Notes: generated by a model not told the origin, from the letters alone. 64,000 bases of DNA from Patescibacteria group bacterium (GCA_041650715.1 JBAZKQ010000001.1:723913-787912), one strand, 5' to 3'; counted from the first letter of the stretch, positions 1-60,545 are shown. Numbers and translations are program-made.

Positions 1-446
1 CTCAAGCTTTCCCGAATTTTGGTGTCGAGCGCACAGGCGCTCCGATACAATCTTTCGCGCGCATTAGCCGCGAACCGATTATTACCCGCGAACAAATTTA
101 TGAACCCACAATCTTGATTATTCAGGACTCGACTCTGCTCGACACGGTTGATGTTTTCGCCGGTTGCTCGAAAGATACGCTCGTGATTATTAATGCCACG
201 GAAAATAAATGGCCAAAATTAACCGCTAAATTTAAAAAACTATATCTCGCCGGCGCCACCGAAATCGCCTTGGAAATTTTCGGAAAAAATATCGTTAATA
301 CGATTATTCTCGGCGCTCTGGCTAAACACAGCCAGCTCGTCAGTCTAAACTCTCTCCAAAAAGCCATCACCGAAAAATTTAAAGATAAAGGCGAAGCGCT
401 GATTGCCAAAAATATCAAAGCGATAAAAATGATTTATGAAGAATAA
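1..446 (+). CDS. porG: 2-oxoacid (pyruvate):ferredoxin oxidoreductase gamma subunit, 5' end cut by window edge
   Basis: The frame of ORF 114..446 stays open back to nt 3 (QAFPNFGVERTGAPIQSFARISREPIITREQIYEP...), which is PorG-like. It overlaps the downstream porD start by 11 nt. Confidence 0.8.
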   Translation, partial: QAFPNFGVERTGAPIQSFARISREPIITREQIYEPTILIIQDSTLLDTVDVFAGCSKDTLVIINATENKWPKLTAKFKKLYLAGATEIALEIFGKNIVNTIILGALAKHSQLVSLNSLQKAITEKFKDKGEALIAKNIKAIKMIYEE

Positions 447-711
447 AAAAATTAGTTTAATTACTGATCCCAATACAACTTTAAAGAATAAAACCGGGCC
501 TTGGCGCACCCAAAAACCGGTGACTGATTATAATACCTGCATTAGCTGCGGCTTATGCTCTAAAATCTGCCCAGACGCTTGCATCGAAATGAAAGCACAA
601 GCCGGTTTTAATAAAGAGAAGCCGGTCACGAATTATGATTATTGCAAAGGCTGCGCTTTGTGCGTGCATGAATGTCCGGTAAAAGCGATTAAAATGGTAG
701 CCGACTATTAA
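436..711 (+). CDS. porD: PFOR delta subunit, 2x[4Fe-4S] ferredoxin
   Basis: 91 aa with two CxxCxxCxxxCP motifs (CISCGLCSKICP, CKGCALCVHECP). Sits between porG and porA. Confidence 0.85.
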   Translation: MKNKKISLITDPNTTLKNKTGPWRTQKPVTDYNTCISCGLCSKICPDACIEMKAQAGFNKEKPVTNYDYCKGCALCVHECPVKAIKMVADY

Positions 712-712
712 T

Positions 713-1861
713 ATGGAAAATAAAAAACAAATCATGGAGGGTTCGCAGGCAATTGCGGCGGTTATTAATAATATTAACCCAGCCGTTATTTCTGCTTACC
801 CGATAACACCCCAAACTCATATCGTCGAAAAGCTCGCGAAGCTCAAAGCAAACGGCGAAGCCAACTATGAATATGTGCGCGCGGAAAGCGAGTTCGCGGC
901 CGCTTCGATTATCCTCGGGGCGAGCGCGACCGGTGTCCGCGTTTATAGCGCGACCAGCTCCCAGGGCTTACTCTTAATGGCCGAAGTCATTTTTAATATC
1001 GCGGGCATGCGCCTCCCGATCGTGATGACTTGCGCTAATCGTGCCCTATCCGGACCGATTAATATTTGGAACGATCAGAGCGATGTAATGTCTATCCGCG
1101 ACGCGGGCTGGATTCAATTATTTGCCAGCGATAACCAGGAAGCGGTTGACCTGCATATTTTGGCTTATAAGCTGGCCGAAAAATTAAATTTACCGGTCAT
1201 GGTCAACGTTGACGGTTTTATTTTAACGCATGCTTATGAACCGGTAGCAATTCCCGACCGTAAAACCATTAAGAAATATCTACCCGACTATAAAGCGGCG
1301 CGCGGCACTTATTTAGACCCTAATAATCCGGTAACGCTCGGCGCCTTTTTTACGCCGGCGCATTATTTCGAAACGAGAGAAGATTTGCATAATGACGGTT
1401 TAGCTGCCATAGGCACTATTAAAAAAGAATACCAAAGTTTAGTAAAAATTATCGGCCGCAAAAATAAAGATAATGGCTTAGTCGAATACTACGGACCAAA
1501 AAAGCCGGAAACGATTTTAGTTGCGCTCGGTTCGGTCGTCGGCACCTTGCGGGAAAGCGTTAAGGACAATAATAAGGTCGGGGTCTTAAAAATAAAAACT
1601 TTCCGCCCTTTCCCGGCCGCCGAAATTAATAAAATAATTTTACGCGCGAAAAATGTCGCGGTGATTGAAAAAGCCATTAGCCTCGGCCAAGCCGGCCCGC
1701 TATTTTCCGATCTTAAAGCCGCTCTCCCGAATAATAAATTAAATCTCAGTAATTATATCGTCGGGCTCGGCGGACGCGATGTCACACAAAAAATGATTAA
1801 GAGCATTATTGTGAGTGCGAAGAAAATAAATAAACAAACTAAATTTATCGGCAAAATATGA
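713..1861 (+). CDS. porA: PFOR alpha subunit
   Basis: 382 aa. The N-terminus (EGSQAIAAVINNINPAVISAYPITPQTHIVE) is typical of PorA. Starts 2 nt after the porD stop. Confidence 0.85.
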   Translation: MENKKQIMEGSQAIAAVINNINPAVISAYPITPQTHIVEKLAKLKANGEANYEYVRAESEFAAASIILGASATGVRVYSATSSQGLLLMAEVIFNIAGMRLPIVMTCANRALSGPINIWNDQSDVMSIRDAGWIQLFASDNQEAVDLHILAYKLAEKLNLPVMVNVDGFILTHAYEPVAIPDRKTIKKYLPDYKAARGTYLDPNNPVTLGAFFTPAHYFETREDLHNDGLAAIGTIKKEYQSLVKIIGRKNKDNGLVEYYGPKKPETILVALGSVVGTLRESVKDNNKVGVLKIKTFRPFPAAEINKIILRAKNVAVIEKAISLGQAGPLFSDLKAALPNNKLNLSNYIVGLGGRDVTQKMIKSIIVSAKKINKQTKFIGKI

Positions 1862-2691
1862 TTAAGTCTAAATTTAATTTTGCTAAACTTTCACTCGGCG
1901 TAATTTTCGGCCTGCAATTGGCCGCTGCCACTTTAATTTTTTCTTCCCCTCTTCCCGCAAGCGCGCAAACAAAGATTCAATCCTTAAACTTTGTGCCTCA
2001 AGTGAGCATTCCTAATTCCGAATTTAACGGCAGCGTTTCGGTGGGTAGTTACAACGATAAAACGGGAACAATCAGCAGCGATTTATTGGCTCGCTATATC
2101 AAAGCCTTTTATAATTACGGCTTAGCGGCAGCCGGAATATTGGCGGCCCTTATTTTAATGGGCGGCGGCGTACTCTGGTTAACTTCCGGCGGCGATGCCG
2201 GCAAAGTCGGCCAAGCGAAAGAATTAATTACCGGCAGTATCGTTGGTGTCGTCATTCTTGTCTGCGCTTGGGTGATACTAAATACGATCAATCCGAACCT
2301 CGTAAACTTACAACCGATTGAAACGACAGTTGTAAAAAAAATCGCTTATTGTTGCGACTCTAAACTTGGTAATGTCATGATGGATAAGGATGGAAATTGT
2401 CCGAGCGGGAAAGCTTGTGAAAACGGATTAACTTGTTTAAAAATGGACTCGACCAGCTATAGCTGCGCCGAAAATAGAATTTGTTGCCAATGCGGCGTCC
2501 ATTGCGTCGGCGGAATATGCCCGGATATTCTTTGTAAAAATGACACCACCGTCCAAGAATGTGATAATTGGTGCGAAAATGAAAAATATCTCGGAACCGG
2601 TTGGGCCTCGGCTTATTACGCCGGTGGAAGCAAATCCTATGAATGCAAAGCTATTCTCGGACTGATTGGAGTGGGCTGCGTAAAACAATAA
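1858..2691 (+). CDS. secreted T4SS-pilin-like (TrbC/VirB2-like) membrane protein with Cys-rich C-terminal domain
   Basis: Signal peptide (..PLPASA|QT). Two-TM hairpin core (AAGILAALILMGGGVLWLTSGGDAGKVGQAKELITGSIVGVVILVCAWVILNTINPNLVNL) is shared with ORFs 3591 and 4969. 16 Cys in the last ~110 aa. ATGA start/stop overlap with porA. Confidence 0.7.
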   Translation: MIKSKFNFAKLSLGVIFGLQLAAATLIFSSPLPASAQTKIQSLNFVPQVSIPNSEFNGSVSVGSYNDKTGTISSDLLARYIKAFYNYGLAAAGILAALILMGGGVLWLTSGGDAGKVGQAKELITGSIVGVVILVCAWVILNTINPNLVNLQPIETTVVKKIAYCCDSKLGNVMMDKDGNCPSGKACENGLTCLKMDSTSYSCAENRICCQCGVHCVGGICPDILCKNDTTVQECDNWCENEKYLGTGWASAYYAGGSKSYECKAILGLIGVGCVKQ

Positions 2692-2693
2692 AT

Positions 2694-3569
2694 ATGAAAA
2701 ATAATACAAAACAAAAATTTCTCTCTCCCGGTCATAATGCCTGCGCTGGCTGCGGCCAATTAAGCGCGGCTCAAGCCGTGATGCGGGGTTTAAATAAAAA
2801 TGTCATAATTGCCAATGCGACTGGTTGTTTAGAGGTAACCACAACTGCTTATCCGCAAAGCGCCTGGGGTCTTCCCTGGATTCATTCTTTATTTGAAAAC
2901 GCGGCGGCCGTTGCGTCCGGTATTCAAGCGGCTCTGAATAAAAAAGGAGATAAGACAACTAAAGTTATCGTTCAAGCGGGCGACGGCGGAACTTATGATA
3001 TCGGCCTGGGACTCATCAGTGGCATGTGGGAACGCGGCGAAAATATTTTATATATCTGCTACGATACTGAGGCTTATTCTAACACCGGTATCCAGGCCTC
3101 TGGCGCGACGCCCTATGGCGCCGACACAACGACTTCTCCTGCCGGTAGTGCTTCTATCGGCTCCAACCAGCGGAAAAAGGATATGCTGGCCCTGGCTCTT
3201 GCTCACGGCCTTAAATACGCCGCGCAAAGCACGGCCGGTTTCCCCGATGATATTACAAATAAAGTAAAAAAAGCGCTCAGTATTCCGGGCCCAAGCTATA
3301 TCCAAATTCTATCGCCCTGTATGCCCGGCTGGCGCATAAATAATGACGAAGCGGTGATGATGGGCAAACTGGCAGCTGCTACCGGACTTTTCCCTTTACT
3401 CGAGTACACTGACGGCCTTTTAAGCGCTTCGAGCGTGAACGCAAATTTCATAGCCAAGCCGGTCGCTGAATACTTATTAAAACAAGGACGCTTCAAACAT
3501 CTAAAAGAAGAAGATATTGCCGCTATCCAAAAATTAGCGGATGCCAATATAAAGAAATACAAAATTTAA
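2694..3569 (+). CDS. porB: PFOR beta subunit (TPP-binding)
   Basis: Contains GHNACAGCG and the QAGDGGTYDIG TPP motif. I prefer ATG 2694, 3 nt after the upstream stop. The track start at 2643 would overlap ORF 1858..2691 by 49 nt. Confidence 0.85.
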   Translation: MKNNTKQKFLSPGHNACAGCGQLSAAQAVMRGLNKNVIIANATGCLEVTTTAYPQSAWGLPWIHSLFENAAAVASGIQAALNKKGDKTTKVIVQAGDGGTYDIGLGLISGMWERGENILYICYDTEAYSNTGIQASGATPYGADTTTSPAGSASIGSNQRKKDMLALALAHGLKYAAQSTAGFPDDITNKVKKALSIPGPSYIQILSPCMPGWRINNDEAVMMGKLAAATGLFPLLEYTDGLLSASSVNANFIAKPVAEYLLKQGRFKHLKEEDIAAIQKLADANIKKYKI

Positions 3570-3590: not shown

Positions 3591-4961
3591 ATGAAAAAAA
3601 TAAAACATTTTTATATACTGTCTATTTTATTTTTTGTTTTATTTCCATTTTTTTTAGTTTCTGCTGATATCGCTCCAATGGGAAAGGTTAATAGTGCTGC
3701 TGATTTCAATGCTTGGGGCGGAGGCAAGTGCGTCTACTATTCGGGCGGGGGCTGCAGCTCGGGCCAATGGTTAAATAGTGACAAGAGTAATTGCGCCTGG
3801 GAGCCCTGTTGCAAACAACACTTGGATGGCTATCCCGCCAACGACTTTATTTATCGATTTGCGACTCTTAATACTCCTTGTGTTAGTAAGACCGGTTTAA
3901 CTGAGACCATAGAACCTGACCAAACAAAATGTGTTAATCCAAACTTTGACTGCTGCTGTCCGGGTGCTCCAATTATTGCGCAGCAAAGTACCGTAGAAGA
4001 AAAAAAAGCCATCTATACTCCTCCCGATTTGCAGGTGAAGATACCAGGTATGGAAAAACTGTCGACTATCAGTTGTGACGAAACCGGACAATGCGAAATT
4101 CCTTGGCTCGGGCAATATGTAATCGGTATTTATAATTACGCCCTGAGCATCGTCGGTATTTTAGCGGCCATTATGCTCATGGCCGGCGGCCTACTTTGGT
4201 TAATTTCGGCCGGAGATGCTTCAAAAATAACTCAAGCGAAAGAGCTTATCACCGGCAGCGTTACCGGCCTAATTATTTTGGCCGCCTCTTTTATAATTCT
4301 TGTCCAAATTAATCCTAACTTGGTAAATTTTAATGCCCTTAGTTTATCTTCAATCAAGCGAGTAGATCTCGGTGATGCCGCTTGGACCCCAATAGTTTCC
4401 ACTAAACAATCGGTTGCGGCCTATTGCGGCTGTGTTGATTGGCATACCTTATATGCAGGTTCTAATCTAAAATCAGCCTCGGCGATAAAAGCGAAATTAG
4501 CAGGTTCACCCTTAGAAAGTTATAGCGATTTAGTTGCTTCTGCTTGTCAGCAAACCCAAATTGATCCGGCTTTAGTTTTAATTATTTGGCGCGTTGATAG
4601 TATCTACGCAACCGCCGGTCCAGGAAAAAAGAACAACAATCCCGGTAACGTCCGCTGCGGTGAGAAAAAAAGTGGCAATGGCTGGACCTGCGTCGACAAC
4701 TTCAGGCATTATGATAATCTCGCAATCGGCATTACGGATTGGTTTGTCGTTGTTGGCCAAGGCAAGCGCCTGAGCTCAAGTAAGAATATTCGTGAATTAA
4801 TTAAAACCTATGCCCCACCCAGCGATCATAATGATACTCAAGCCTATATTAATTTGGTTATGAGCGCGATAGACTCCGCTCACGGCGGCCAATTAAAAAC
4901 GACCGACGGCAGTGCCGCTTCTTTGCAGAAATGTACCGATATAAATAGTACTTGCCCATAA
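3591..4961 (+). CDS. secreted pilin-like membrane protein: Cys-rich N-domain, two-TM pilin core, lysozyme/SLT-like C-domain (tentative)
   Basis: Signal peptide (FFLVSA|DI). Core IPWLGQYVIGIYNYALSIVGILAAIMLMAGGLLWLISAGDASKITQAKELITGSVTGLIILAASFIILVQINPNLVNF. The C-domain has QIDPALVLIIWRVDS...NNNPGNVRC, which resembles the lytic transglycosylase/muramidase helix plus NNxxN motif, with D in place of the usual catalytic E. Confidence 0.65.
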   Translation: MKKIKHFYILSILFFVLFPFFLVSADIAPMGKVNSAADFNAWGGGKCVYYSGGGCSSGQWLNSDKSNCAWEPCCKQHLDGYPANDFIYRFATLNTPCVSKTGLTETIEPDQTKCVNPNFDCCCPGAPIIAQQSTVEEKKAIYTPPDLQVKIPGMEKLSTISCDETGQCEIPWLGQYVIGIYNYALSIVGILAAIMLMAGGLLWLISAGDASKITQAKELITGSVTGLIILAASFIILVQINPNLVNFNALSLSSIKRVDLGDAAWTPIVSTKQSVAAYCGCVDWHTLYAGSNLKSASAIKAKLAGSPLESYSDLVASACQQTQIDPALVLIIWRVDSIYATAGPGKKNNNPGNVRCGEKKSGNGWTCVDNFRHYDNLAIGITDWFVVVGQGKRLSSSKNIRELIKTYAPPSDHNDTQAYINLVMSAIDSAHGGQLKTTDGSAASLQKCTDINSTCP

Positions 4962-4968
4962 GACTATT

Positions 4969-5997
4969 ATGAAAAAACTAATTTTTATCATCAGTTTCAT
5001 AACTATATTTTTTATTTTTTCCGCTCCCGCTTGGGCGGCGTGCTCTTGGGAAACGGAAATTACCACTACGACCTATACCGCTCTCGGCTCAGCCCCGGTT
5101 ACGTCTGTTTCGGGAGGCTGCATCGCTAAAAGCATGCTTAAGGATAGTGATACTAAATGTTCCGGGACTAAGCCGACTTTTAGCATCAACTCCGGAAAAT
5201 CGGCCGTTTGTTGCTGTGATGGCGATCTTGGAAGCACGGATAAAATGCCGTTATTTAATATTCCTGATTTACAAGTAAAAATTCCGGGTATGCAAAATTT
5301 TAGCCAAACCACTTGTATCCCCGGAGCCAGTGGCGGTTATTTTTGCCAAATACCATGGATTGGACAATATATAATCGGTATTTATAATTATGCCATTAGC
5401 ATTGTCGGTATTTTAGCGGCGATTATGCTTATGGCCGGCGGCTTACTTTGGTTGCTTTCGTCGGGAGATGCTTCAAAAATTAGCCAAGCCAAAGAATTAA
5501 TTATCGGCAGTGTAACCGGCCTAATTATCTTGGCGGCCTCCTACATAATTCTCGGTCAAATTAATCCCAATCTCGTAAATTTTTCGCCAACCGCGATTAA
5601 TACGGTGGCCGATGTCGAACCGCTTTCCAGCGACGGCAATATAAATAACAGCACCGAATGCAATAATTGCGTTTCGCTGCAAAGCGCGATACCTTATAAA
5701 AATGGCCACCTCATAAATAGTGATTTGAATGCTAAATTGGCAACCGCTTGGGCAAACTCGGGTAGCCTGAAGTGGAGGGTAACCGAGGCTTATCCGCCCT
5801 CAAGCATGCACAACAGCCTTTGCCATAATAACGGCATGTGCGTCGATATCGCTTTGACGACCGATAAGAGTTGCACTAATGTAAATAAATTAATCTCAAT
5901 TTTAAAAAACGCCGGCGTATCAGTTTTAAATGAATACACCGGCTGCGGCGGGACCCAGACGACTTATGCCACGGGCGGGCATTTACATGTCAGATAA
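4969..5997 (+). CDS. secreted pilin-like membrane protein with LAS/peptidase-M15-like zinc hydrolase C-domain
   Basis: Signal peptide (SAPAWA|A). The pilin core is a close match to ORF 3591 at both protein and DNA level. The C-domain has H-x6-D (CHNNGMCVD) and a terminal HxH (GGHLHV), the LAS metallopeptidase signature. Confidence 0.65.
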   Translation: MKKLIFIISFITIFFIFSAPAWAACSWETEITTTTYTALGSAPVTSVSGGCIAKSMLKDSDTKCSGTKPTFSINSGKSAVCCCDGDLGSTDKMPLFNIPDLQVKIPGMQNFSQTTCIPGASGGYFCQIPWIGQYIIGIYNYAISIVGILAAIMLMAGGLLWLLSSGDASKISQAKELIIGSVTGLIILAASYIILGQINPNLVNFSPTAINTVADVEPLSSDGNINNSTECNNCVSLQSAIPYKNGHLINSDLNAKLATAWANSGSLKWRVTEAYPPSSMHNSLCHNNGMCVDIALTTDKSCTNVNKLISILKNAGVSVLNEYTGCGGTQTTYATGGHLHVR

Positions 5998-6402
5998 CTA
6001 TCTCCCCCGATCCATTGCTTCGTTAGCCAGGCGATCGGCTTCCCCATTCCGCTCCCGCGGAATATGAGTATAAGAAATTTTCTTAAAATTTAAACTTAAA
6101 TTGTGAATAGTCAAAAACAAAGGCGCCAAGTCTTTGTTTTTTACTTTATATTCATGTTTTAATTGTTTGACGACAAGTTCACTATCTAAATAGCAATCAA
6201 GCTCATTAGCCTTTAAAGAGGCGGCTTTCTGAAGGGCGGCGATAAGCGCTTTATACTCAGCTTGATTATTCGTGGCCACGCCAAGATACTCGGAAATTTC
6301 TGCCACGAGTTTTTTGTTTTCGTCATAAATTACTGCGCCGATGCCAGCCGGTCCGGGATTACCCCGCGCTCCGCCGTCGGTAAAAATAATCGCTTTATTC
6401 AT
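5998..6402 (-). CDS. rnhA: ribonuclease HI
   Basis: 134 aa: FTDGGARGNPGPAGIGAVI...NNQAEYKALIAAL...SELVVKQL...NGEADRLAN (DEDD RNase H motifs). Confidence 0.85.
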   Translation of the reverse strand: MNKAIIFTDGGARGNPGPAGIGAVIYDENKKLVAEISEYLGVATNNQAEYKALIAALQKAASLKANELDCYLDSELVVKQLKHEYKVKNKDLAPLFLTIHNLSLNFKKISYTHIPRERNGEADRLANEAMDRGR

Positions 6403-16238: not shown

Positions 16239-16433
16239 TTATTGATAAATTTTAATATTTTTTTTTAATAAATTAATTAATCCGCTCATAAGACACAAAA
16301 CAATCAGGTAATTTATATTAAAATAGGCAAGAATAATGTTCGGCCAAACAAGTTCCAAGCCGATAAAAGCCAAGAGGAGGAAAAAGAGAAAATAAAAAAT
16401 TTCCCGACTGATTATTGCCAAATTTTTTGCCAT
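16239..16433 (-). CDS. small membrane protein (2 predicted TM helices)
   Basis: 64 aa and hydrophobic. Overlaps the end of ORF 16412..17932 by 22 nt on the same strand. Confidence 0.4.
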   Translation of the reverse strand: MAKNLAIISREIFYFLFFLLLAFIGLELVWPNIILAYFNINYLIVLCLMSGLINLLKKNIKIYQ

Positions 16434-17932
16434 AGGGTCCGGCCTTTTAATTCTATTTTAATTTGATAAATTTCTAAATTATCTTCAACTCCATCTTCCG
16501 TCTTTAGGCCCGGTACCGAAATCATAAAACTATATTTACCGTTTTCCCGATAAGTTCCCTTTAAATCGAATTCGGCCGTGGCGGTTTTAAAGCCCTCTTC
16601 TTCGCTCGGTTTATGATAATTCGCCACGATATATTTAACCGGATCGGAGACCGAAAAATACCGATCGACTTTAGGCAAAGCGGGATTAAAAAGGCTGTTG
16701 GCTGACCAGGCAAAAACGCCATTATTTTCCAAAATTAGGTTGTCTTTGCTTAATTTTATCGCCTTCTTTATTTCTCCGCCCTCAGCTTTAAAGTCATATT
16801 GCTGATAGGCCGTGCTGAGAGTAAAATTTTTCCCCCCGAAATTAATCGTCTGTAAGCTCGCCGGCGTAGGCGCCTTAACCTGTAAATAGGCTGAATCGGT
16901 ATAAAGAGTCAAAGCTCCCGGATTCGATACCGGCCAAATTTTGTTGATGAAAGACAGGCGATCAACCGAACTGACAATTTTCTTTATAACCATATCATCG
17001 GTTATTTTCACCTCAACTTTATAAACACCAGCCGGCAAGTTCCCCGGATCAAGAGTCAGCTCTTTTTCTTCGGTCTGCCCGCTACCCGGCTGCGGATTAG
17101 GGTCACTCAAATCCCGTGTCTCGATAATTTTATCACCGCGAGAAATAATTAAGCTAATTGGGGCCGGTTTCAGGTCTTGATTTAAATCGACAAAAGTAAA
17201 GGCCAGGCGCAGAGGTTCATTTTTAACGTAAACATAAAATTGATGCGCGCCGCGCAAAGGGATATTAAGCGTAAGCGGAACGGCCGCTTGATAGTTTTGG
17301 ATCTGATAATCATACTCCGGAGCGTAATTATAAACGGCCAGACAATTTTTTGAAACTTGGTCGCAGCCCTTAATATCGCCCTTGCTTAAATCCGCTTCGA
17401 GAACACTTAAACTCGTATAATTTTCTTCCTTTTGCAAAAATAATTTACCGTTCTCCTCACTCAGGTGCCAGCGCAGCATTAAATAGTCGAGAGCCTTATT
17501 ATCAAGCGGCTGCAAATTATAGCGCCAGACAATATTATCGGCTAAAACACCGGCCTCAACAACAGGAGTATCGAGCCCGAGATTATCACGATAAACAACG
17601 GTCAGTTTTGCCCGATCAAAAGTGCGCGACGTAAACACGGAAAAATAAATTGGGTCGCCAATGACGCGCGGCAATTCCCCTTTTTCAACCGCGACTCTTT
17701 CCGCCGGCGTAAACCCATAAATAAAGCCCTTGCCTGAGCGCCAAGGCGAACTATAATCGCGCGTATAAACAATCTGACCGAAGGGCACAATTTTCAAATA
17801 TAAAAAAGAAAAAATAATAATAAACAAAATAAGCCCCAAAAATAGGCGTAATTTAAATAAAAATGGCCATTTTTTCCAAATAGTTTTAAGCATATCTATC
17901 TCTATTTTACGCCATTTTGCACTCGCTGGCAA
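16412..17932 (-). CDS. hypothetical membrane-anchored protein
   Basis: 506 aa. One N-terminal TM helix (LFLGLILFIIIFSFLYL) followed by a large, probably extracytoplasmic, beta-rich domain. No motif recognised. The true start may be the internal MLKTIWKKW. Confidence 0.6.
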   Translation of the reverse strand: MPASAKWRKIEIDMLKTIWKKWPFLFKLRLFLGLILFIIIFSFLYLKIVPFGQIVYTRDYSSPWRSGKGFIYGFTPAERVAVEKGELPRVIGDPIYFSVFTSRTFDRAKLTVVYRDNLGLDTPVVEAGVLADNIVWRYNLQPLDNKALDYLMLRWHLSEENGKLFLQKEENYTSLSVLEADLSKGDIKGCDQVSKNCLAVYNYAPEYDYQIQNYQAAVPLTLNIPLRGAHQFYVYVKNEPLRLAFTFVDLNQDLKPAPISLIISRGDKIIETRDLSDPNPQPGSGQTEEKELTLDPGNLPAGVYKVEVKITDDMVIKKIVSSVDRLSFINKIWPVSNPGALTLYTDSAYLQVKAPTPASLQTINFGGKNFTLSTAYQQYDFKAEGGEIKKAIKLSKDNLILENNGVFAWSANSLFNPALPKVDRYFSVSDPVKYIVANYHKPSEEEGFKTATAEFDLKGTYRENGKYSFMISVPGLKTEDGVEDNLEIYQIKIELKGRTLWQKIWQ

Positions 17933-37911: not shown

Positions 37912-38700
37912 ATGAACGAAAAAATCTTAATTAGTCTCGGTTTAAGCGGTGTACAAGCAGAGGTTTTTAGTTGCCTGCTCCAAAACGGACCGCAAAAAGC
38001 CAGTGATATCGCCAAATTAACCAAGCGCCCCCGCGGTGTCGCCTACAAAGGCTTAGAGGAATTGATTAGCTTGGGTCTGGCCAATAAAAAAGAAGCAAAG
38101 GCCGGTATAGCTGTCTTCGCGGCTGAGCACCCCTCGAATCTCGAGAAGGTCATAGAACAAAAAGAAAAAGACCTGGCTAAAACCAAGTCTGCTTTTGCGA
38201 GCTCCCTGCCCGATCTGATATCGACTTTCAATCTTGTCAGCAATAAGCCAGGAGTTAGATTTTATGAGGGGGAGGAAGGAATTAAAAAATCCCTGGAAGA
38301 TACCTTAAATTGCCAAGACATAATTTATACTTTTGCTGACATCGAGGCCGTTGAAAAAAACGTCAAAGAAATTAATGACGCTTACGCTAAAAAGAGGGAG
38401 AAGGCACAAATTAAAAAAAGAGTTATCGTCGCCGATACTCCTTTTAATCGCTCTTATTTAAAAAATTATAATGGCACTATTACCGAGTTTCGTTTTCTCC
38501 CCAAAGATTTTTACAGTTTTAACAGCGGCGTGCAAATTTATGAAAATAAAGTTTCTTATCAAGTAATTTCGGCGGAGAATAAGATGGCTATTATTATTGA
38601 AGACAAAAATATATACCAAATGAATAAGCTTTTATTTGAGTTTATCTGGGAAAAATTGGCAACTAAAATTAATGATTCTTCTCAAACGCCAAATACCTAA
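37912..38700 (+). CDS. TrmB-family HTH transcriptional regulator (paralog 1)
   Basis: 262 aa. N-terminal wHTH (LGLSGVQAEVFSCLLQNGPQKASDIAKLTKRPRGVAYKGLEELISLGL). The shared block PGVRFYEGEEGIKKSLEDTL matches ORF 52657..53430. Confidence 0.75.
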   Translation: MNEKILISLGLSGVQAEVFSCLLQNGPQKASDIAKLTKRPRGVAYKGLEELISLGLANKKEAKAGIAVFAAEHPSNLEKVIEQKEKDLAKTKSAFASSLPDLISTFNLVSNKPGVRFYEGEEGIKKSLEDTLNCQDIIYTFADIEAVEKNVKEINDAYAKKREKAQIKKRVIVADTPFNRSYLKNYNGTITEFRFLPKDFYSFNSGVQIYENKVSYQVISAENKMAIIIEDKNIYQMNKLLFEFIWEKLATKINDSSQTPNT

Positions 38701-41182
38701 TATTTCCCTGGGGTTCTTCATCCTTATCATAAAAATAACGCGTTAAAGTATATTTCCCCTTCTTCGCTTCCAGCTCCCGTCCCTCATCATCAACCTTGGG
38801 TAATAATTCACTCAAGGTTTTTTGATAGTCGGCCATCTCGGAATTTAAATCAAAACGCAAAACAAAAGTTTCGCGGCCAATTAAATCTTTTAACTCCACG
38901 CAGCTTTGCGCCGCCATTTTTAACTCACTAATCGTCAACGGACCGTCCTTCCCTTCCGGTCTAAGAGTATAATTTGAGTTGTTCTCTTTATCCAATTTTA
39001 TATTATATAAGCTTTCGCCGGTCTGATGATAATTCTCAATGATCCCGTTAGCCACAAAACCAATTTTTTCGACATAAGAACAACCCGCCGGAATTTTTAT
39101 GGAAGCAGTTGCCTCTAAAACATTATCGTCCCCTTCTCTCATTAAGGCTTTTTCCATCAGGTCATTGCCAATTGCTAAACCACGCAAATCTTTAGAAACA
39201 TTAAACGACCCGGCATAAACAGTGCTCCGGTCAGTTTTTTCAAAACGAACGAAACCGATTGCCTCATCTTTAAACTTTAAAATATAAGCCCGTTGGTTTT
39301 TATCATTTTCCAAAGCTTCCTCCAATCCGGACAGAGCCACCTTGGCCATTTTATCGTTGCCAAAATTATTCCAATTAGCTTCAGCCATTTCCAAAACCTC
39401 TTTCTTGTCTTTTTCGTTTATACCTTCACCGTAATCATTGACCTGTAAACTTAAATCTCGGGCCGATTCAATATTGAACTCTTTTTGATATTTCTTAATT
39501 GACTCTAAAAGGCCCGCTAAAATAGTTATTTCCGATTTATTATTGTTAAGATTATGCAGGAGCGCATCAAAATTTTTATTTTTGTTGTCCGCCAATTCTT
39601 CAATAATTTTCGCCGACTTCTGGAGTAAAACCTGACGCAAACCATTAACGGTATCGTCTTCAACACTTGTACCGCTCTTAAAAAACAGCGGAATTAGATC
39701 ATTAATCTTCTGTGTGGTAAGTTCATTTATCTTACTGATTGCCGAGAAAACCGCGCTTGCCTTTTCCGGAGCTATCCTATTGCCCAGACCCAACTCGATT
39801 ATCTTTTCACCGAGATTATTGCCCCGCTCCATGGCTAAAAACGTTTTTAGGCCATCAATGCCATAGCGTCCGACAAATTCTTTTAATTTCTGTTCATCTT
39901 TTATTTCCGATGTATAATTAGCGATTAAAATTTGTTCCGACCAAGACAATTCCCTAATTGGAGTTTTTGTTTCTAAAAATAAAGACCGAAAACGATTATG
40001 GACAAAATTTACATCATTGAGGTTAGACAAACGATCGGCATATTCTTCGACGGATTCTTGCGGCCGTTTCGGAAAATGGTCTGAAACATGATAAGGTTTA
40101 ATCCGCTCCTTCATATGTTCGGCTGGAATAGTCCGAAAAACATCCCGTTTGTCGGCAAAAGAAAAGTCTTTATATTCCGGCTCGGATAATTTATTAAAAG
40201 TGTATAAGATTTTTTCTCGGCCATGGCTTGTCTCCGTAATACCCATTAAATCTTTGGCTAGTTCCACTGCCTTAATGTCGGGCGTTATCTCCTTGTCTGT
40301 TCCGGTTATCTTATTACGGCCAATATAATATCTAACTAATTTATTATTTTCTCCAGAAATATTAACATAGGGGTTGGATCCGCCAAATTTGCGGTCATGC
40401 GAAAAAGACACGGCGGCCGACTCGGAATCAGTGGGTCGAGTTTTTAAATCTTCATTTTTAAATAGATTTAACGAGTCAATCGTCGGTAAGAATTTTTTAA
40501 TAAAAATCGTGGGGGTTCCCTCAAATGAATATTTCTTTCCATCCGCGACAAAAGTTATTCTGCGATTAAACAACTCTCGTGATTTTTTGAACGCAAAATC
40601 ATTAGTCTGCCCGTTTTTGGGATCAGTATATTCTAAATTTCCTTTTTCATTACGACGCAAATCAATTTCTTTAAACTTCTGTAAATAATATAATTCAGCT
40701 AATGATATATTGTTACCATCATCCAATTTAAGTTGGCTAGAAAATTCCGGCCGCTGACCAATTTCCCACGGCTTAATTATACCTTTAGAGAAATCGCCCC
40801 TCTTAGCATCTTCAATGTTGTTAGGGAGCGAAAGGAGCGGCTTTCCCGCCTGGGCGGCTGCACCATTATCGTCGCTCGCATCTTTCGCTAATCCCTTTTT
40901 ATCCCTTAAATAGTCTAAAATATCCTGATAATTTAAATAGTGTCTTCCCCCGTTTTGATTAATTGATTTGTTTATAAAACGATCGGACATTTTAAAGCCT
41001 CCGAGTGCATCGAGGTCAAACCGCTCTGCGCCATCCTCTCCGGAAATAATACCTAATTGTCTAAACTTTTTATCGACATCAGAAAAAATCAAGTCGCGAT
41101 CAAACCCGTCTGGTTGGTTCCCTGACTCGGCTTTTGAAATATCTGGCGCAATTACCTCATTTTTCAACATATATTGAATCAA
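38669..41182 (-). CDS. large hypothetical protein with GNAT-like acetyltransferase domain near the C-terminus
   Basis: 837 aa with no signal peptide or TM helix. AYILKFKDEAIGFVRFEK...VSKDLRGLAIGNDLMEKAL...GFVANG resembles the GNAT motif A region. The first ~620 aa are unassigned. Confidence 0.55.
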   Translation of the reverse strand: MIQYMLKNEVIAPDISKAESGNQPDGFDRDLIFSDVDKKFRQLGIISGEDGAERFDLDALGGFKMSDRFINKSINQNGGRHYLNYQDILDYLRDKKGLAKDASDDNGAAAQAGKPLLSLPNNIEDAKRGDFSKGIIKPWEIGQRPEFSSQLKLDDGNNISLAELYYLQKFKEIDLRRNEKGNLEYTDPKNGQTNDFAFKKSRELFNRRITFVADGKKYSFEGTPTIFIKKFLPTIDSLNLFKNEDLKTRPTDSESAAVSFSHDRKFGGSNPYVNISGENNKLVRYYIGRNKITGTDKEITPDIKAVELAKDLMGITETSHGREKILYTFNKLSEPEYKDFSFADKRDVFRTIPAEHMKERIKPYHVSDHFPKRPQESVEEYADRLSNLNDVNFVHNRFRSLFLETKTPIRELSWSEQILIANYTSEIKDEQKLKEFVGRYGIDGLKTFLAMERGNNLGEKIIELGLGNRIAPEKASAVFSAISKINELTTQKINDLIPLFFKSGTSVEDDTVNGLRQVLLQKSAKIIEELADNKNKNFDALLHNLNNNKSEITILAGLLESIKKYQKEFNIESARDLSLQVNDYGEGINEKDKKEVLEMAEANWNNFGNDKMAKVALSGLEEALENDKNQRAYILKFKDEAIGFVRFEKTDRSTVYAGSFNVSKDLRGLAIGNDLMEKALMREGDDNVLEATASIKIPAGCSYVEKIGFVANGIIENYHQTGESLYNIKLDKENNSNYTLRPEGKDGPLTISELKMAAQSCVELKDLIGRETFVLRFDLNSEMADYQKTLSELLPKVDDEGRELEAKKGKYTLTRYFYDKDEEPQGNIRYLAFEKNH

Positions 41183-50603: not shown

Positions 50604-52001
50604 TTGAATAAATATATAAATACACAGCCACCAAGACAATTCAAGAAAATAGCCGTAGAAATCGGTCTGATTACGATAAAAGGCACTGTTTTACTGAAAA
50701 AACTACTGGCTTTCCCTTTCCGGCTAATCGCCGGTTTTTTTCGTTGGGTCTTCAAGCTGCTTTTTTATAAAATATTAGTCAAAATATACTATCAATTATT
50801 CCGCCTCCGCAAGCTCGGTTTTATTAAACACTCGCCGCTCGAGTTATTTCGCCGCCAATCGGTTTATTTCTTTATTTTTGGTTTGCTGGTTATTGTTTTG
50901 ACAATAAATTTTAGCGCTACAAAACGCGCCAGCGCTATGGACACTAAGATACCCAAAACCGTTATGTTTCAATTAGTAGCGACCGACTTTAGTGTAACGG
51001 CGGCAGACGACTTAATCGAGGAAATTGCCTCGCCCAATAGCGTTCTCACGGCCGGCAAAGACAAATATATCGACGACTCCTGCAGTTTGCCAAAACAAAC
51101 AATTATCAATTCGACTGATGAGAGCGATCAATTCAACTCTTTTTCTTTTGACGAAAACAGCGACTTAGTTTTCAAACCCGAACTGATTACTCCCGGCTCC
51201 AGTGCAGATAACGGCAGTTCGGCCACAGCCCGCACGGAAATTGTTGAATACACTGTTCAGAACGGCGATACAGTTTCTTCAATTGCGCATCGCTTTGGTA
51301 TAACCATCAACACAATTCTGTGGGCCAATAACTTGACCGCCTATAGTTTAATTCGCCCGGGTGACTCCTTGAGTATTTTACCCTATAGCGGCGTTTTGTA
51401 TGTCGTAAAGAAAGGAGATACCCTGGCCAGAATTGCTCAGCTATATGATGTCGAGTTAGATAAAATATTAAGCTGTAATAATTTAGGCAACAGCATTGCG
51501 GTTGGCGAAAAAATTGTCGTGCCGGGTGCCCAAAAAATTAACACCGCCGTCGCTGTCAAAAAACCAAGCGCCAGTTATACCGGTATTTCCGTAATTAAAG
51601 ATTTAATTTCCAGTCCGGGCGTTAAAGCGAGCGGCAATAAAATGGTTTGGCCGACAGTTGGCGCGAGGATCACTCAATATTATGGTGCCGTTCATACTGG
51701 AGTTGATATTGCCAATAAGGTCGGGACGGCAATTTATGCGGCTGATGACGGTGTTGTTCTTATTTCCCAAGGCGGTTATAATGGCGGCTATGGTAACACG
51801 ATTGTTATTGATCATGGCGGCGGCGTAAAAACACGTTACGGTCATGCTTCGAAGCTTTATGTTAAGGCCGGGCAAACTGTCACCAAGGGACAAGTGATTG
51901 CCGCGATGGGCTCAACCGGACGTTCAACCGGATCGCACCTGCATTTCGAAGTACTTGTTAACGGAGCGCGGCGCAATCCTTTAAACTATATTAAATACTA
52001 A
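50604..52001 (+). CDS. LysM-domain M23 family metallopeptidase
   Basis: 465 aa. TM anchor, two LysM repeats (YTVQNGDTVSSIAHRFG.., YVVKKGDTLARIAQLY..), and M23 motifs HTGVDI and GSTGRSTGSHLHFE. The TTG start is uncertain. Confidence 0.8.
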   Translation: MNKYINTQPPRQFKKIAVEIGLITIKGTVLLKKLLAFPFRLIAGFFRWVFKLLFYKILVKIYYQLFRLRKLGFIKHSPLELFRRQSVYFFIFGLLVIVLTINFSATKRASAMDTKIPKTVMFQLVATDFSVTAADDLIEEIASPNSVLTAGKDKYIDDSCSLPKQTIINSTDESDQFNSFSFDENSDLVFKPELITPGSSADNGSSATARTEIVEYTVQNGDTVSSIAHRFGITINTILWANNLTAYSLIRPGDSLSILPYSGVLYVVKKGDTLARIAQLYDVELDKILSCNNLGNSIAVGEKIVVPGAQKINTAVAVKKPSASYTGISVIKDLISSPGVKASGNKMVWPTVGARITQYYGAVHTGVDIANKVGTAIYAADDGVVLISQGGYNGGYGNTIVIDHGGGVKTRYGHASKLYVKAGQTVTKGQVIAAMGSTGRSTGSHLHFEVLVNGARRNPLNYIKY

Positions 52002-57941: not shown

Positions 57942-60545
57942 ATGAAACCAGACAGCAAAAAACCAAATATATTTACTTTTGAATCATATTCGATTAATGA
58001 AAAAACGGATACGATTAATTTTTGTTATTCTTTCGACAATGGCCTTAAATTTACGGAAACAATTTCTCTCGGCGGGGGTAAAATCGATTGGCATCGCGTC
58101 AATCGCCCATTAATTACCAGGATAATTTTTAATCTCCAGCTCGCTCTCGGGATTGGTTATTATAAAGCTTATTGCCCGAAAAAAATACTTATTAAAAGCG
58201 GCGCGCTTTCCCGCGGAGAAGCCGAATTTTGGAATAAACTTTATACTAAAGGCCTCGGCGAATTTTTTTATCGCAATAAAATTGATTACCGCGGTTTAAT
58301 TAATTTCCCTTACCAAAAAAATAAAAGTACTCAGGCCGTCACTATTAAATTAAGTGAGCGCGTTCTTCTCCCTTGGGGTGGCGGTAAAGATTCATGCGTC
58401 TCTGCTGAACTCTTAAAAGAGTTGGGGCACGATTTTACTCTTATTACTTTACGCGATAGCGATATCCAAAGAGCCACGGCGAAAATAAGCGGTAAAGCGC
58501 GCATTATTAATGATCGTATTATCGACCCGGCTCTTATTGAATTAAATAAGTCCGGTGTTTATAATGGCCATATTCCAATTTCCGCAATTTACGCCTGGAT
58601 GACGGTTTTGGGTGCGGTTCTTTATGACTATAGCCACATTATTTATTCTAATGAAGCCAGCGCCAATTTTGGGAACATCAATTATCTGGGCTCAGAAATA
58701 AATCATCAATATAGTAAGTCGCTTGAATTCGAAAATGATTTTCGGGATTATTTAAAAAATTTCGTTTCTCCCGACATTAATCATTTTAGTTCCCTGCGCC
58801 AATTTTCTGACTTAAAAATCAGCCGCCTTTTTTCCAAATATCCAAAATATTTTCCCGTATTTTCCAGTTGTAACCGCAATTTTTCAATTACGAAGAAAGC
58901 GGCTTCGCGCTGGTGCGGCGAGTGCCCGAAATGTTTATTTACTTTTTCCCAACTGGCCGCATATATTGAACGCCCGAAGTTAATCGCCACCTTCGGCCAA
59001 AATTTATTCGCGCGCAAAGAGCTTCTACCTTTATTCCAGGAGCTGTGGGGCGAAAAAAAATTTAAACCCTTTGACTGCGTCGGCACACCCGGCGAAGTTC
59101 GGGCCGCCCTGCTTTTAAGCGCGGCCAAAAAAGATTGGAATCAAGACTTTATCGTAAAATATTTTAATAAACAGATCGCTCCGAAAATAAGCAATCCGGG
59201 AAAGTTGATTAATGATGCCTTAAAAAATAAAACGGAACATAATATCCCGGCCAATTTCCGCTCAACTTTGATTCTCGGTTTTGGCATCGAAGGTAAATTT
59301 GCCGCCGACTACTTACAAAAAAAATATCCCGGTTTTAAATTTGCGATTGCCGACCAAAAAGATGGACCGGACTATTTATCTGCGGTAAAGGACTATGATG
59401 TAATTATAAAATCACCCGGCATTAGCCTCCGAGAACCGGAACTCGTCGCTGCCCAAAACTCCGGCCGAGAAATAACTTCGATTACTAATATATTCTTGGA
59501 AAAATATGGCGCGCAAACTATCGGCGTTACCGGCACCAAGGGAAAAAGTACGACCGCTTCGCTTATCTATGAAATACTTAAGGCCGCCGGAAAGAACGTC
59601 TATCTGGTAGGCAATATCGGCTTCGACCCGCTATCGCACCTCCTCTGTGCACCCGACAAAAATAAAATATTTGTCTACGAATTATCGAGCTATCAATTAG
59701 AAAGCGCTAAACACAGCCCCCATATTTCCGTGTTTATCAATATCTTCCCCGATCATCTGCCTTATCACCGCGGCTTTAATAATTATTTTAAAGCCAAAAC
59801 CAATATCACTAATTTCCAGACGCCCGCCGACCTTTTTATTTACAACGATAAATATCCGGCCATAAAAAAACTAGCGGCCCGCACGCCGGCGCAAACCCTG
59901 GCCTACCCAAAAGAATGCTCCGTCCGTGGCACCAATATTTATTATTTTTCAGAAAAAATAATTGCCTTGTCTGACATTAAACTTTTGGGTGAACATAATA
60001 TTAAAAATATTATGGCGGCCATCTGCGTGGCTAAAAATTATAAAATCTCCACGGCCGCGATTAAGCGCGCCTTAAGTAAATTCACCAATCTCAATCACCG
60101 TTTAGAATTTGTCGGCCGGTTTAAAAATATCGCTTTTTACGACGACGCAATTTCCACCACCCCGGAATCAACGCTGGCGGCTATTGAAGTATTCAAAGAA
60201 AAAATTGGCACCCTTATTTTAGGCGGCGAAGACCGCGGCTATAAATTCGGCGCCTTAGCCAAACGCTTGGCTGAACTTAAAATCAGAAATTATGTTTTCT
60301 TTCCGAATAGCGGGCGAGCAATTGCGTCCGCGATTCAAAAAGCGTACCAGAAAAAAGGACTAAAGGCTCCAGACATCCTATTCACCAAAAGTATGGCTGA
60401 AGCCGTAAAATTTGCCTATAAAAATACCGCGGCCGATCAGATTTGTCTCCTTTCCACCGCCTCGCCAAGCTATTCAATCTTTAGAGACTTTAAAGAGAAG
60501 GGAGATTTATTCCAAGCCGCCGTAAAAAAGACCGCTAAATTATGA
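57942..60545 (+). CDS. murD: fusion protein: N-terminal PP-loop (adenine-nucleotide alpha-hydrolase-like) domain plus C-terminal UDP-N-acetylmuramoylalanine--glutamate ligase (MurD)
   Basis: 867 aa. The N-half has PWGGGKDS (SGGxDS-like PP-loop) and WCGECPKCLF. The C-half has a MurD Rossmann N-domain (ILGFGIEGKFAADYL) and a GVTGTKGKSTT P-loop. Confidence 0.75.
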   Translation: MKPDSKKPNIFTFESYSINEKTDTINFCYSFDNGLKFTETISLGGGKIDWHRVNRPLITRIIFNLQLALGIGYYKAYCPKKILIKSGALSRGEAEFWNKLYTKGLGEFFYRNKIDYRGLINFPYQKNKSTQAVTIKLSERVLLPWGGGKDSCVSAELLKELGHDFTLITLRDSDIQRATAKISGKARIINDRIIDPALIELNKSGVYNGHIPISAIYAWMTVLGAVLYDYSHIIYSNEASANFGNINYLGSEINHQYSKSLEFENDFRDYLKNFVSPDINHFSSLRQFSDLKISRLFSKYPKYFPVFSSCNRNFSITKKAASRWCGECPKCLFTFSQLAAYIERPKLIATFGQNLFARKELLPLFQELWGEKKFKPFDCVGTPGEVRAALLLSAAKKDWNQDFIVKYFNKQIAPKISNPGKLINDALKNKTEHNIPANFRSTLILGFGIEGKFAADYLQKKYPGFKFAIADQKDGPDYLSAVKDYDVIIKSPGISLREPELVAAQNSGREITSITNIFLEKYGAQTIGVTGTKGKSTTASLIYEILKAAGKNVYLVGNIGFDPLSHLLCAPDKNKIFVYELSSYQLESAKHSPHISVFINIFPDHLPYHRGFNNYFKAKTNITNFQTPADLFIYNDKYPAIKKLAARTPAQTLAYPKECSVRGTNIYYFSEKIIALSDIKLLGEHNIKNIMAAICVAKNYKISTAAIKRALSKFTNLNHRLEFVGRFKNIAFYDDAISTTPESTLAAIEVFKEKIGTLILGGEDRGYKFGALAKRLAELKIRNYVFFPNSGRAIASAIQKAYQKKGLKAPDILFTKSMAEAVKFAYKNTAADQICLLSTASPSYSIFRDFKEKGDLFQAAVKKTAKL

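Follow-up and report, generated by a model that had tools for sequence, protein, structure and literature searches.

The window analyzed here, a 64,000-nt stretch from an 809-kb contig of a Patescibacteria metagenome-assembled genome (MAG), begins inside porG, and its first genes are those of a pyruvate:ferredoxin oxidoreductase (POR) operon interleaved with genes of pilin-like proteins. The order, on the plus strand throughout, is porG-porD-porA-[ORF 1858]-porB-[ORF 3591]-[ORF 4969], so that one of the open reading frames (ORFs) given in brackets occupies the slot between porA and porB (slot A) and the other two the slot after porB (slot B). The subject of this analysis is the slot-B pair, ORF 3591 (3591..4961, 456 aa, labelled "hypothetical protein" by NCBI) and ORF 4969 (4969..5997, 342 aa, labelled "pilin"), both of which are present as stated in a preliminary description of this DNA. 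Sequence comparisons and structural models firmly support the view that these are Sec-exported, hairpin-anchored proteins that present a domain of the peptidoglycan-hydrolase type on the outer face of the membrane; beyond this, we infer their enzymatic activity, the substrate, and any link to a type IV secretion system (T4SS).

The two proteins have in common a block that BLASTP aligns with 54% identity over 177 aa (E 1e-54); no alignment was obtained outside this block, the C-terminal domains being unrelated. Within the block, the 78-aa hairpin running from IPW to NPNLVNF is 88% identical at the protein level and 83% identical at the DNA level (234 nt). All the motifs quoted in the preliminary description were located, namely, CHNNGMCVD (H286-x6-D293) and the C-terminal HLH (H338/H340) in ORF 4969, and IDPALVLIIWRVDS and NNNPGNVR in ORF 3591. 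In ORF 3591, a signal peptide (aa 1-24; 3591-3662) is followed by a Cys-rich N-terminal domain (aa 25-144; 3663-4022), the PDLQVKIPGM motif with the hairpin (aa 145-247; 4023-4331), and a domain similar to GH73 enzymes and the Enc34 endolysin (aa ~270-456; 4398-4958). The corresponding parts of ORF 4969 are the signal peptide (aa 1-23; 4969-5037), the Cys-rich N-terminal domain (aa 24-98; 5038-5262), the PDLQVKIPGM motif with the hairpin (aa 99-205; 5263-5583), and a LAS domain of the Hedgehog-N/DD-peptidase-like type (aa ~226-342; 5644-5994). Hydropathy analysis of each protein reveals an N-terminal signal-type segment and two transmembrane (TM) segments, located at residues 3-31, 176-210, and 218-247 in ORF 3591, with equivalents in ORF 4969 and ORF 1858; the two hydrophobic helices are joined by a short loop, S-x-GDASKI-x-QAKELI, and followed by the C-terminal domain of 140-210 aa. 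With the signal peptide cleaved and two spans left, both flanking domains should reside outside the membrane, a topology with which the distribution of cysteines (14-19 per protein, nearly all of them within the outer domains) and the DsbA-like gene described below are consistent.

That the two-TM block is a hairpin of the VirB2/T4SS_pilin type, as originally proposed, is supported by matches to the Pfam model T4SS_pilin (PF18895) in both ORF 3591 (25.6 bits, E 1.3e-5) and ORF 4969 (25.1 bits, E 1.8e-5), each slightly short of the 26.6-bit cut-off, as well as in 50 of 53, 75 of 79, and 91 of 112 proteins in the sets of relatives (E<=1e-3 or 1e-2). The proteins encoded here are not, however, hairpins alone: they are 277-456 aa long, and across the family the N-terminal extensions measure 50-240 aa and the C-terminal extensions 100-325 aa. 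In the alignments, an invariant N-P-x-L motif follows TM2 exactly at the junction between the hairpin and the C-terminal domain. Across 38 species, the median conservation of the hairpin (69%) is on a par with that of PorA (66%), RecJ (68%), and MurJ (73%) and exceeds that of the LAS domain (56%), which argues for a specific role of the hairpin rather than that of a passive anchor. The slot-B proteins also have a near-invariant CCC (alignment A5), some 20 residues ahead of the PDLQ.KIPG motif, at 3951-3959 in ORF 3591 (C121-C123) and 5209-5217 in ORF 4969 (C81-C83).

The third paralog, ORF 1858 (1858..2691, plus strand, 277 aa), overlooked in the preliminary description, consists of a signal peptide, a short N-terminal region, the hairpin (~2086-2310), and a Cys-rich C-terminal domain. 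It scores above the 26.6-bit cut-off of T4SS_pilin (33.6 bits, E 4.3e-8) and matches the NCBIfam model of Mbov_0395 pilin-like proteins (E 0.0024), and its core is 57-59% identical to those of ORFs 3591 and 4969. The C-terminal domain of 127 aa carries 16 of the 17 cysteines of this protein and has no match in Pfam or the PDB; the domains found in this slot in other species are likewise mostly Cys-rich, of many unrelated kinds, and without a family.

The similarity of the hairpin-encoding DNA of ORFs 3591 and 4969 had been taken as a sign of recent duplication. This interpretation is refuted by the synonymous divergence of the shared block (dS 0.86), which rules out gene conversion as well; with dN at 0.067 and a dN/dS ratio of ~0.08, the similarity is due to strong purifying selection on the protein. 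Besides, the core of ORF 3591 is closer to a VanY-bearing ortholog from another genome (90%) than to ORF 4969 (87%).

The C-terminal domain of ORF 4969 yielded nothing meaningful in a single-sequence search of the PDB and Pfam, and a word-indexed search for homologs returned two relatives only; an exhaustive search of representative sequences detected 436 cluster representatives at E<=1e-3. Among the 150 LAS homologs listed, 146 were newly retrieved, and a pilin hairpin precedes the domain in 122 of these, most of the others being fragments. The predicted active site (5824..5988, plus strand) comprises H286 (5824-5826), D293 (5845-5847), E322 (5932-5934), and the HxH pair H338 (5980-5982) and H340 (5986-5988). 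In 114 aligned homologs, H286 and D293 are conserved in 100%, H340 in 96%, and H338 in 82%, and E322, E273, and H281 in 99% each; in the alignments A2 and A7, the LAS ligands and the catalytic Glu are invariant. Loss of the key His and Asp residues in orthologs, which would have spoken against a hydrolase, is thus not what is seen. The AlphaFold model of the domain (pLDDT 90.3) retrieves, in a Foldseek search, Hedgehog N-domains first (probability 1.0, TM-score ~0.56), followed by VanXYc, LdcB, Ply500, and MepA, and a profile built from 30 members of the LAS family matches Sonic hedgehog (Shh) with E 2.5e-6. In the profile alignment, H-x2-G-x3-D of the family coincides with H141...D148 of Shh, and N-E-Y with E177 of Shh (for the roles of these residues, see PMC6027127). 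The resemblance to the Hedgehog/DD-peptidase group (LAS, MEROPS M15A-like) and to the Shh N-domain thus extends to the H-x6-D and H-x-H zinc motifs, the catalytic Glu, and the fold. The differences are that identity is only ~20%, that additional pairs of conserved cysteines are present, that 15 residues separate the Glu from HxH as opposed to 3 in Shh, and that, unlike the known members, the domain is almost always fused to a pilin hairpin. None of the Pfam M15 models (Peptidase_M15, VanY, M15_3, M15_4) matches ORF 4969 or the 30 family members, and HH_signal recognizes few proteins of the family (3 of 112 and 6 of 30). The earlier assignment as a LAS/M15-type zinc peptidase therefore stands at the superfamily level, given the fold and the motifs, but not as Pfam Peptidase_M15, the nearest type being Hedgehog-N/DD-peptidase. 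The domain is predicted, from sequence and model, to be a zinc LAS peptidase of this type and to be active. These enzyme modules also occur on a chassis other than the hairpin: in two proteins from outside the window (P0239 and P0173), a bona fide GH73 domain with the catalytic Glu precedes this Hedgehog-like LAS domain, and the N-terminal anchor is of another sort, the pilin hairpin being absent.

For the C-terminal domain of ORF 3591, the preliminary description had suggested an SLT/muramidase-like segment. Neither a match to the SLT/GH23 model (PF01464) nor the E-S ... GLMQ-type motifs were found in ORF 3591, and the structural comparison places GH73 enzymes first, so that SLT identity is ruled out. 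With the model of this domain (pLDDT 75.5, from a shallow alignment), Foldseek ranks the GH73 proteins LytB, AtlE, Auto, Ecd09610, and TM0633 at the top and the GH23 enzymes lower, with low probability; among viral structures, the model resembles phage glucosaminidases and tail lysins. The Pfam Glucosaminidase model (PF01832) gives a weak match (15.3 bits against a cut-off of 30.2, E 0.033) that covers profile positions 4-118 of 123. The profile of the ORF 3591 clade matches the Enc34 endolysin (7q47, E 1.2e-5) and phage Gp29 (9vvp, E 5.9e-5), in both cases through the NNNPGN...YAPP..ND..AY block, and a search of PHROGs points to tape-measure and endolysin families. The match to 7q47 spans profile positions 72-159, where YAPP and AY align with WAPP and AY, i.e. 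the equivalents of the aromatic residues Trp79 and Tyr95, the roles of which have been described (PMC8943055). The Enc34 endolysin family is a permuted relative of GH73/GH23 in which the catalytic Glu (Glu131) resides on a later helix (PMC8943055). The present alignment stops before that helix, there is no invariant Glu past domain position 159, and the helix order in ORF 3591 is that of unpermuted GH73. The position of the GH73 catalytic Glu is taken by D336 (codon 4596..4598, plus strand; in RVDS); in two relatives with significant matches to Pfam Glucosaminidase, the residue aligned with it is the Glu of KESS/KESG, and the Asp is invariant in all known members of the clade (four to five). 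This clade is rare, with three database proteins and one metagenome locus: a homolog search with the C-terminal domain alone found a single protein, and the locus from the metagenome scan encodes the full-length form of that same protein. By profile and model alike, the C-terminal domain of ORF 3591 is assigned a lysozyme fold of the GH73/Enc34-endolysin-like type. It shares the lysozyme-like helical fold with GH73 (LytB, AtlE, Auto, TM0633) and differs in that the N-terminal helix bears Asp where these enzymes have their catalytic Glu. With the Enc34-type endolysin (PHA02564), it shares the NNNPGN..YAPP..ND..AY block and the combination of an enzyme with a two-helix TM domain, but the helix order is unpermuted and the enzyme follows the hairpin instead of preceding it.

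The nature of the C-terminal domain varies widely among proteins with closely related hairpins. These domains were classed by single-linkage clustering with strict thresholds, as looser ones failed to separate the 3D-like from the LAS class, and with a hidden Markov model (HMM) of the LAS domain. Among the 120 closest relatives by hairpin, the C-terminal extension falls into a recognizable class of wall hydrolases in 118: 3D-like (27), Hedgehog-type LAS (LAS-Hh, 20), VanY (19), NlpC/P60 (15), SLT-like with AESGG...GLFQFN (15), a second VanY-like class (VanY-b, 10), Amidase_2 (5), GH73 with Asp (GH73-D, 4), and M23, C39_2, and M15_4 (1 each). In the slot after porB alone, the 79 species genomes surveyed (see below) carry LAS-Hh 17 times, 3D-like 10 times, VanY 9 times, VanY-b and NlpC/P60 6 times each, and GH73-D once, this single case being the window itself. 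The N-terminal domains are shuffled as well: one relative (P0002) joins an N-terminal domain of the ORF 4969 type to a C-terminal domain of the ORF 3591 type, whereas two others (P0005 and P0006) combine the N-terminal domain of the ORF 3591 type with M23 and VanY-like domains. When the DNA of the window is aligned with related loci, the similarity ends precisely at the borders of the hairpin. With locus L001, the N-terminal domain and the hairpin of ORF 4969 align up to position 5582 and the C-terminal domain does not, whereas against L003 and L005 the hairpin and the LAS domain align and the N-terminal domain does not. Thus, the hairpin is a constant chassis, and the N- and C-terminal domains are modules that recombine at its edges. 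Two further classes of C-terminal domain without Pfam matches carry hydrolase motifs recognizable by eye: CHYGG...AVDF...NHLHV, another LAS variant, in L023 (9668-10681), and AESGG...GLFQFN, SLT/GH23-like, in L011 (2879-3988).

The upstream part of the POR operon (114..1861; Pfam families POR and Fer4, POR_N and PFOR_II) comprises porG (114-446, cut by the window start), the ferredoxin subunit gene porD (436-711), and porA (713-1861); porB, encoding the TPP-binding beta subunit (Pfam TPP_enzyme_C), occupies 2694..3569, all on the plus strand. The listed ORF of porB begins at 2643, overlapping the end of ORF 1858 by 49 nt; translation more probably starts from the second ATG (2694), which immediately follows the ORF 1858 stop codon. 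Where the starts are unambiguous, the gaps among the POR and hairpin genes do not exceed 21 nt, and the hairpin genes are presumably co-transcribed with the POR operon. Directly downstream lies a convergent RNase H gene (5998..6402, minus strand; Pfam RNase_H / RVT_3), which forms the conserved downstream edge of the slot and is followed by recJ, lepA, and murJ, in this order. When the hairpin profile was run against one genome per GTDB species, 79 loci were recovered, mostly from Candidatus Falkowbacteria and unclassified Patescibacteria, and the order is conserved at every locus with sufficient flank, i.e. in most of the 79 species-level genomes: there is one hairpin gene between porA and porB plus one or two after porB, or else two before porB. 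In syntenic loci, a DsbA/thioredoxin-like gene is found directly upstream of porG (L001, 5352-6101; L003, 5357-6103), a position that falls outside the present window; its presence in the operon is in keeping with oxidative folding of the outer domains, which are rich in cysteine.

We favor the interpretation that these proteins are peptidoglycan hydrolases, tethered to the membrane and facing outward, that have interchangeable warheads and cut near the membrane of the producer, and we give it about an even chance of being correct. Under this scenario, a Sec-exported membrane protein centered on a two-helix hairpin of the VirB2/T4SS_pilin type would hold a Cys-rich N-terminal domain and a C-terminal hydrolase domain outside the membrane. 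The LAS domain of ORF 4969 would cut peptide stems or cross-links, ORF 3591 would supply a GH73/Enc34-like domain of glycosidase fold, with Asp for the usual catalytic Glu, and the outcome would be local opening or remodelling of the wall, possibly in replacement of a VirB1-type hydrolase. Most Patescibacteria with VirB2 homologues lack VirB1 (PMC12102498). The linker between the membrane and the enzyme is only ~20-40 residues long, so that the likeliest substrate would be the peptidoglycan adjoining the producer's own membrane; cutting at this site is favored because the tether is short and because the cell has a wall of its own, the window encoding Mur ligases, MurJ, and a LysM-M23 protein (by Pfam).

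Several observations weigh against this interpretation. Both ORF 3591 and ORF 4969 score just under the T4SS_pilin cut-off of 26.6 bits. No Pfam family of the T4SS (VirB4, TrsD, PrgI, VirB6) was found among the large ORFs of the window, and in published Falkowbacteria genomes, where VirB4 is present, the VirB2-like matches are flagged "VirB4 proximity: No". Scans for promoters and terminators stayed at shuffle expectation and were thus uninformative. The catalytic Glu (E-S-x-x-G) of the GH73 N-terminal helix is not kept in ORF 3591; with Asp in its place, the activity of this protein is uncertain, and it may be inactive or work differently. Finally, mere hole-punching in the cell's own wall offers no obvious reason for the repeated exchange of bond specificity at a single locus.

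It is on this last point that a host-directed reading does better, and both the producer's wall and that of a host are plausible targets, although we consider the latter possibility a tentative one, the less probable of the two. Here, the hairpin would polymerize or join a VirB2-like filament or contact structure, the hydrolases would be displayed outward to breach the wall of a host cell that the epibiont inhabits, and warhead swaps would adapt the enzyme to the chemistry of that wall. Each genome has two or three paralogs, and at a single conserved locus one bond specificity replaces another in the manner of a cassette, a pattern reminiscent of effector diversification; the diversity of warheads is better explained in this way than by action on the cell's own wall. 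The hairpin shows a level of conservation similar to that of housekeeping enzymes, which would suit a module that polymerizes or docks to a machine, and a cultured Patescibacterium cannot grow as an epibiont without its VirB2-like pilin arrays (PMC10633639; PMC12857230). Yet an N-terminal domain of ~75-145 aa and a C-terminal domain of ~140-210 aa around a core of ~80 aa make such proteins hard to fit as major subunits of a filament, an objection based on the packing of VirB2/TraA pili. Moreover, the producer's own peptidoglycan would be in the way, the hydrolase gene is followed by the conserved convergent RNase H gene instead of an immunity gene, and, here too, it counts that T4SS genes were not found in the window and that the Falkowbacteria VirB2-like matches are flagged as distant from VirB4. 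A more specific version, which we regard as doubtful, posits a Falkowbacteria-type VirB2-like surface structure that would be built from, or decorated with, enzyme-bearing subunits, with the warheads exchanged at the hairpin edges and the genes kept at a fixed, constitutively expressed locus within the central fermentation operon. If so, the choice of the warhead would determine which host walls are breached, and the fusions would explain the presence of VirB2-like pilins without VirB1.

A further comparison is that with polymorphic toxins and effectors that target peptidoglycan. In those systems too, the N-terminal chassis is constant and the C-terminal enzymes are exchanged between close relatives at one locus; however, the proteins considered here have no adjacent immunity gene and no dedicated secretion linkage, and they are predicted to stay in the membrane of the producer. 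This reading is weakened by the absence of an immunity gene, the next gene downstream being in every case that of RNase H in convergent orientation.

An unlikely alternative is that the proteins are precursors (pro-pilins), with cleavage near NPxL after TM2 releasing a secreted hydrolase and leaving a small pilin behind. The N-P-x-L motif, invariant and located exactly at the junction of the hairpin and the C-terminal domain, would suit a cleavage site, and the module boundaries coincide with the hairpin edges; the pilins RP4 TrbC and Agrobacterium VirB2 are indeed matured by C-terminal trimming. The trimming known in pilins, however, removes tens of residues and not a folded enzyme of 140-210 aa, no protease partner was seen, and the motif is equally well explained as part of the helix end.

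Slightly less probable still is that one or both C-terminal domains, above all that of ORF 3591, are non-catalytic pseudo-enzymes that bind the wall and thereby tether the hairpin protein to it. This possibility is compatible with the Asp that each of the five known members of the ORF 3591 clade has at the position of the catalytic Glu in GH73, and with the Glucosaminidase score of ORF 3591, far below the Pfam threshold. On the other side, the Asp is itself invariant, the aromatic residues of the catalytic groove (Y374, Y407, and Y419) are kept, the zinc ligands and catalytic residues of the LAS domain are all conserved (82-100% of the 114 homologs), and sister proteins bear the standard active families VanY, NlpC/P60, Amidase_2, and M23.

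The origin from a phage lysis cassette or a mobile element, with a holin-like hairpin and an endolysin, could be suggested by the phage proteins that are the nearest relatives of the ORF 3591 C-terminal domain among solved structures and in PHROGs, and by the two-helix TM domain present in one of them, the Enc34 endolysin (PMC8943055). It is so improbable, however, as to be considered effectively ruled out: no relative of the hairpin was found in 2.9 million viral contigs, and in most of the 79 species genomes the gene keeps its place within a housekeeping operon; in addition, no phage genes surround the locus in the window, and the hairpin is under strong purifying selection.

Returning to membrane-tethered hydrolases as the preferred interpretation, two known systems are of particular relevance. 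The VirB2-like pilins of Patescibacteria (Wang et al. 2023; Quinonero-Coronel et al. 2025) belong to the same hairpin family by HMM, have a Sec signal peptide, and come from the same phylum; here, by contrast, the hairpin is the middle of a protein of 277-456 aa, with folded domains on both sides, and the genes reside in the POR operon and not in a T4SS cluster. The searchable papers on these pilins do not mention hydrolase fusions. The T4SS hydrolases VirB1, PrgK (pCF10), TraG (pIP501), and CwlT (ICEBs1) are likewise membrane-anchored, outward-facing, modular enzymes that open the peptidoglycan for a surface machine (reviewed in PMC12102498), but in these a simple TM segment at the N-terminus serves as the anchor and the gene belongs to a T4SS locus, whereas here the anchor is the pilin-type hairpin itself.

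VirB2-like pilins and their arrays in Patescibacteria, membrane-anchored T4SS hydrolases, LAS peptidases, and GH73 enzymes are all already known. In the searchable literature, we found no description of the fusion of a pilin with a hydrolase, of its cassette-like variation, of its residence in the POR operon, or of a pilin-linked Hedgehog-like LAS family, an absence that is no proof of novelty. The Patescibacteria account for a large share of bacterial diversity, their interactions with hosts are mostly obscure, and few of their surface components are, like the VirB2-like pilins, both essential and typical of the lineage. A large subfamily of such "pilins" would then form the chassis on which wall hydrolases are displayed outward, with all major types of peptidoglycan bond covered, the "pilin" annotations in these genomes would hide enzymes, and the fusions would provide a concrete answer to the published puzzle of VirB2 homologues without VirB1. 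The pilin-linked family of Hedgehog-N-like zinc peptidases, with its hundreds of cluster representatives, would bear on the bacterial roots of the Hedgehog domain. Experiments can draw on catalytic residues that are already defined, on domains that are soluble, and on a natural series of proteins that differ in the warhead while the backbone stays nearly constant.

Elsewhere in the window, two large ORFs on the minus strand, at 38669-41182 (837 aa) and 16412-17932 (506 aa), match no Pfam family at E<=1e-5, and an 867-aa protein (57942-60545, plus strand) combines a Mur ligase in its C-terminal half with an N-terminal portion of ~480 aa that has no Pfam match. A conventional wall hydrolase without a pilin hairpin, consisting of two LysM repeats and Peptidase_M23, is encoded at 50604-52001 (plus strand). 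Among the public MAG records that display the Patescibacteria-specific synteny, many (L007, L009, L010, L012, and others) are titled "uncultured Gammaproteobacteria bacterium" and are probably mislabelled.

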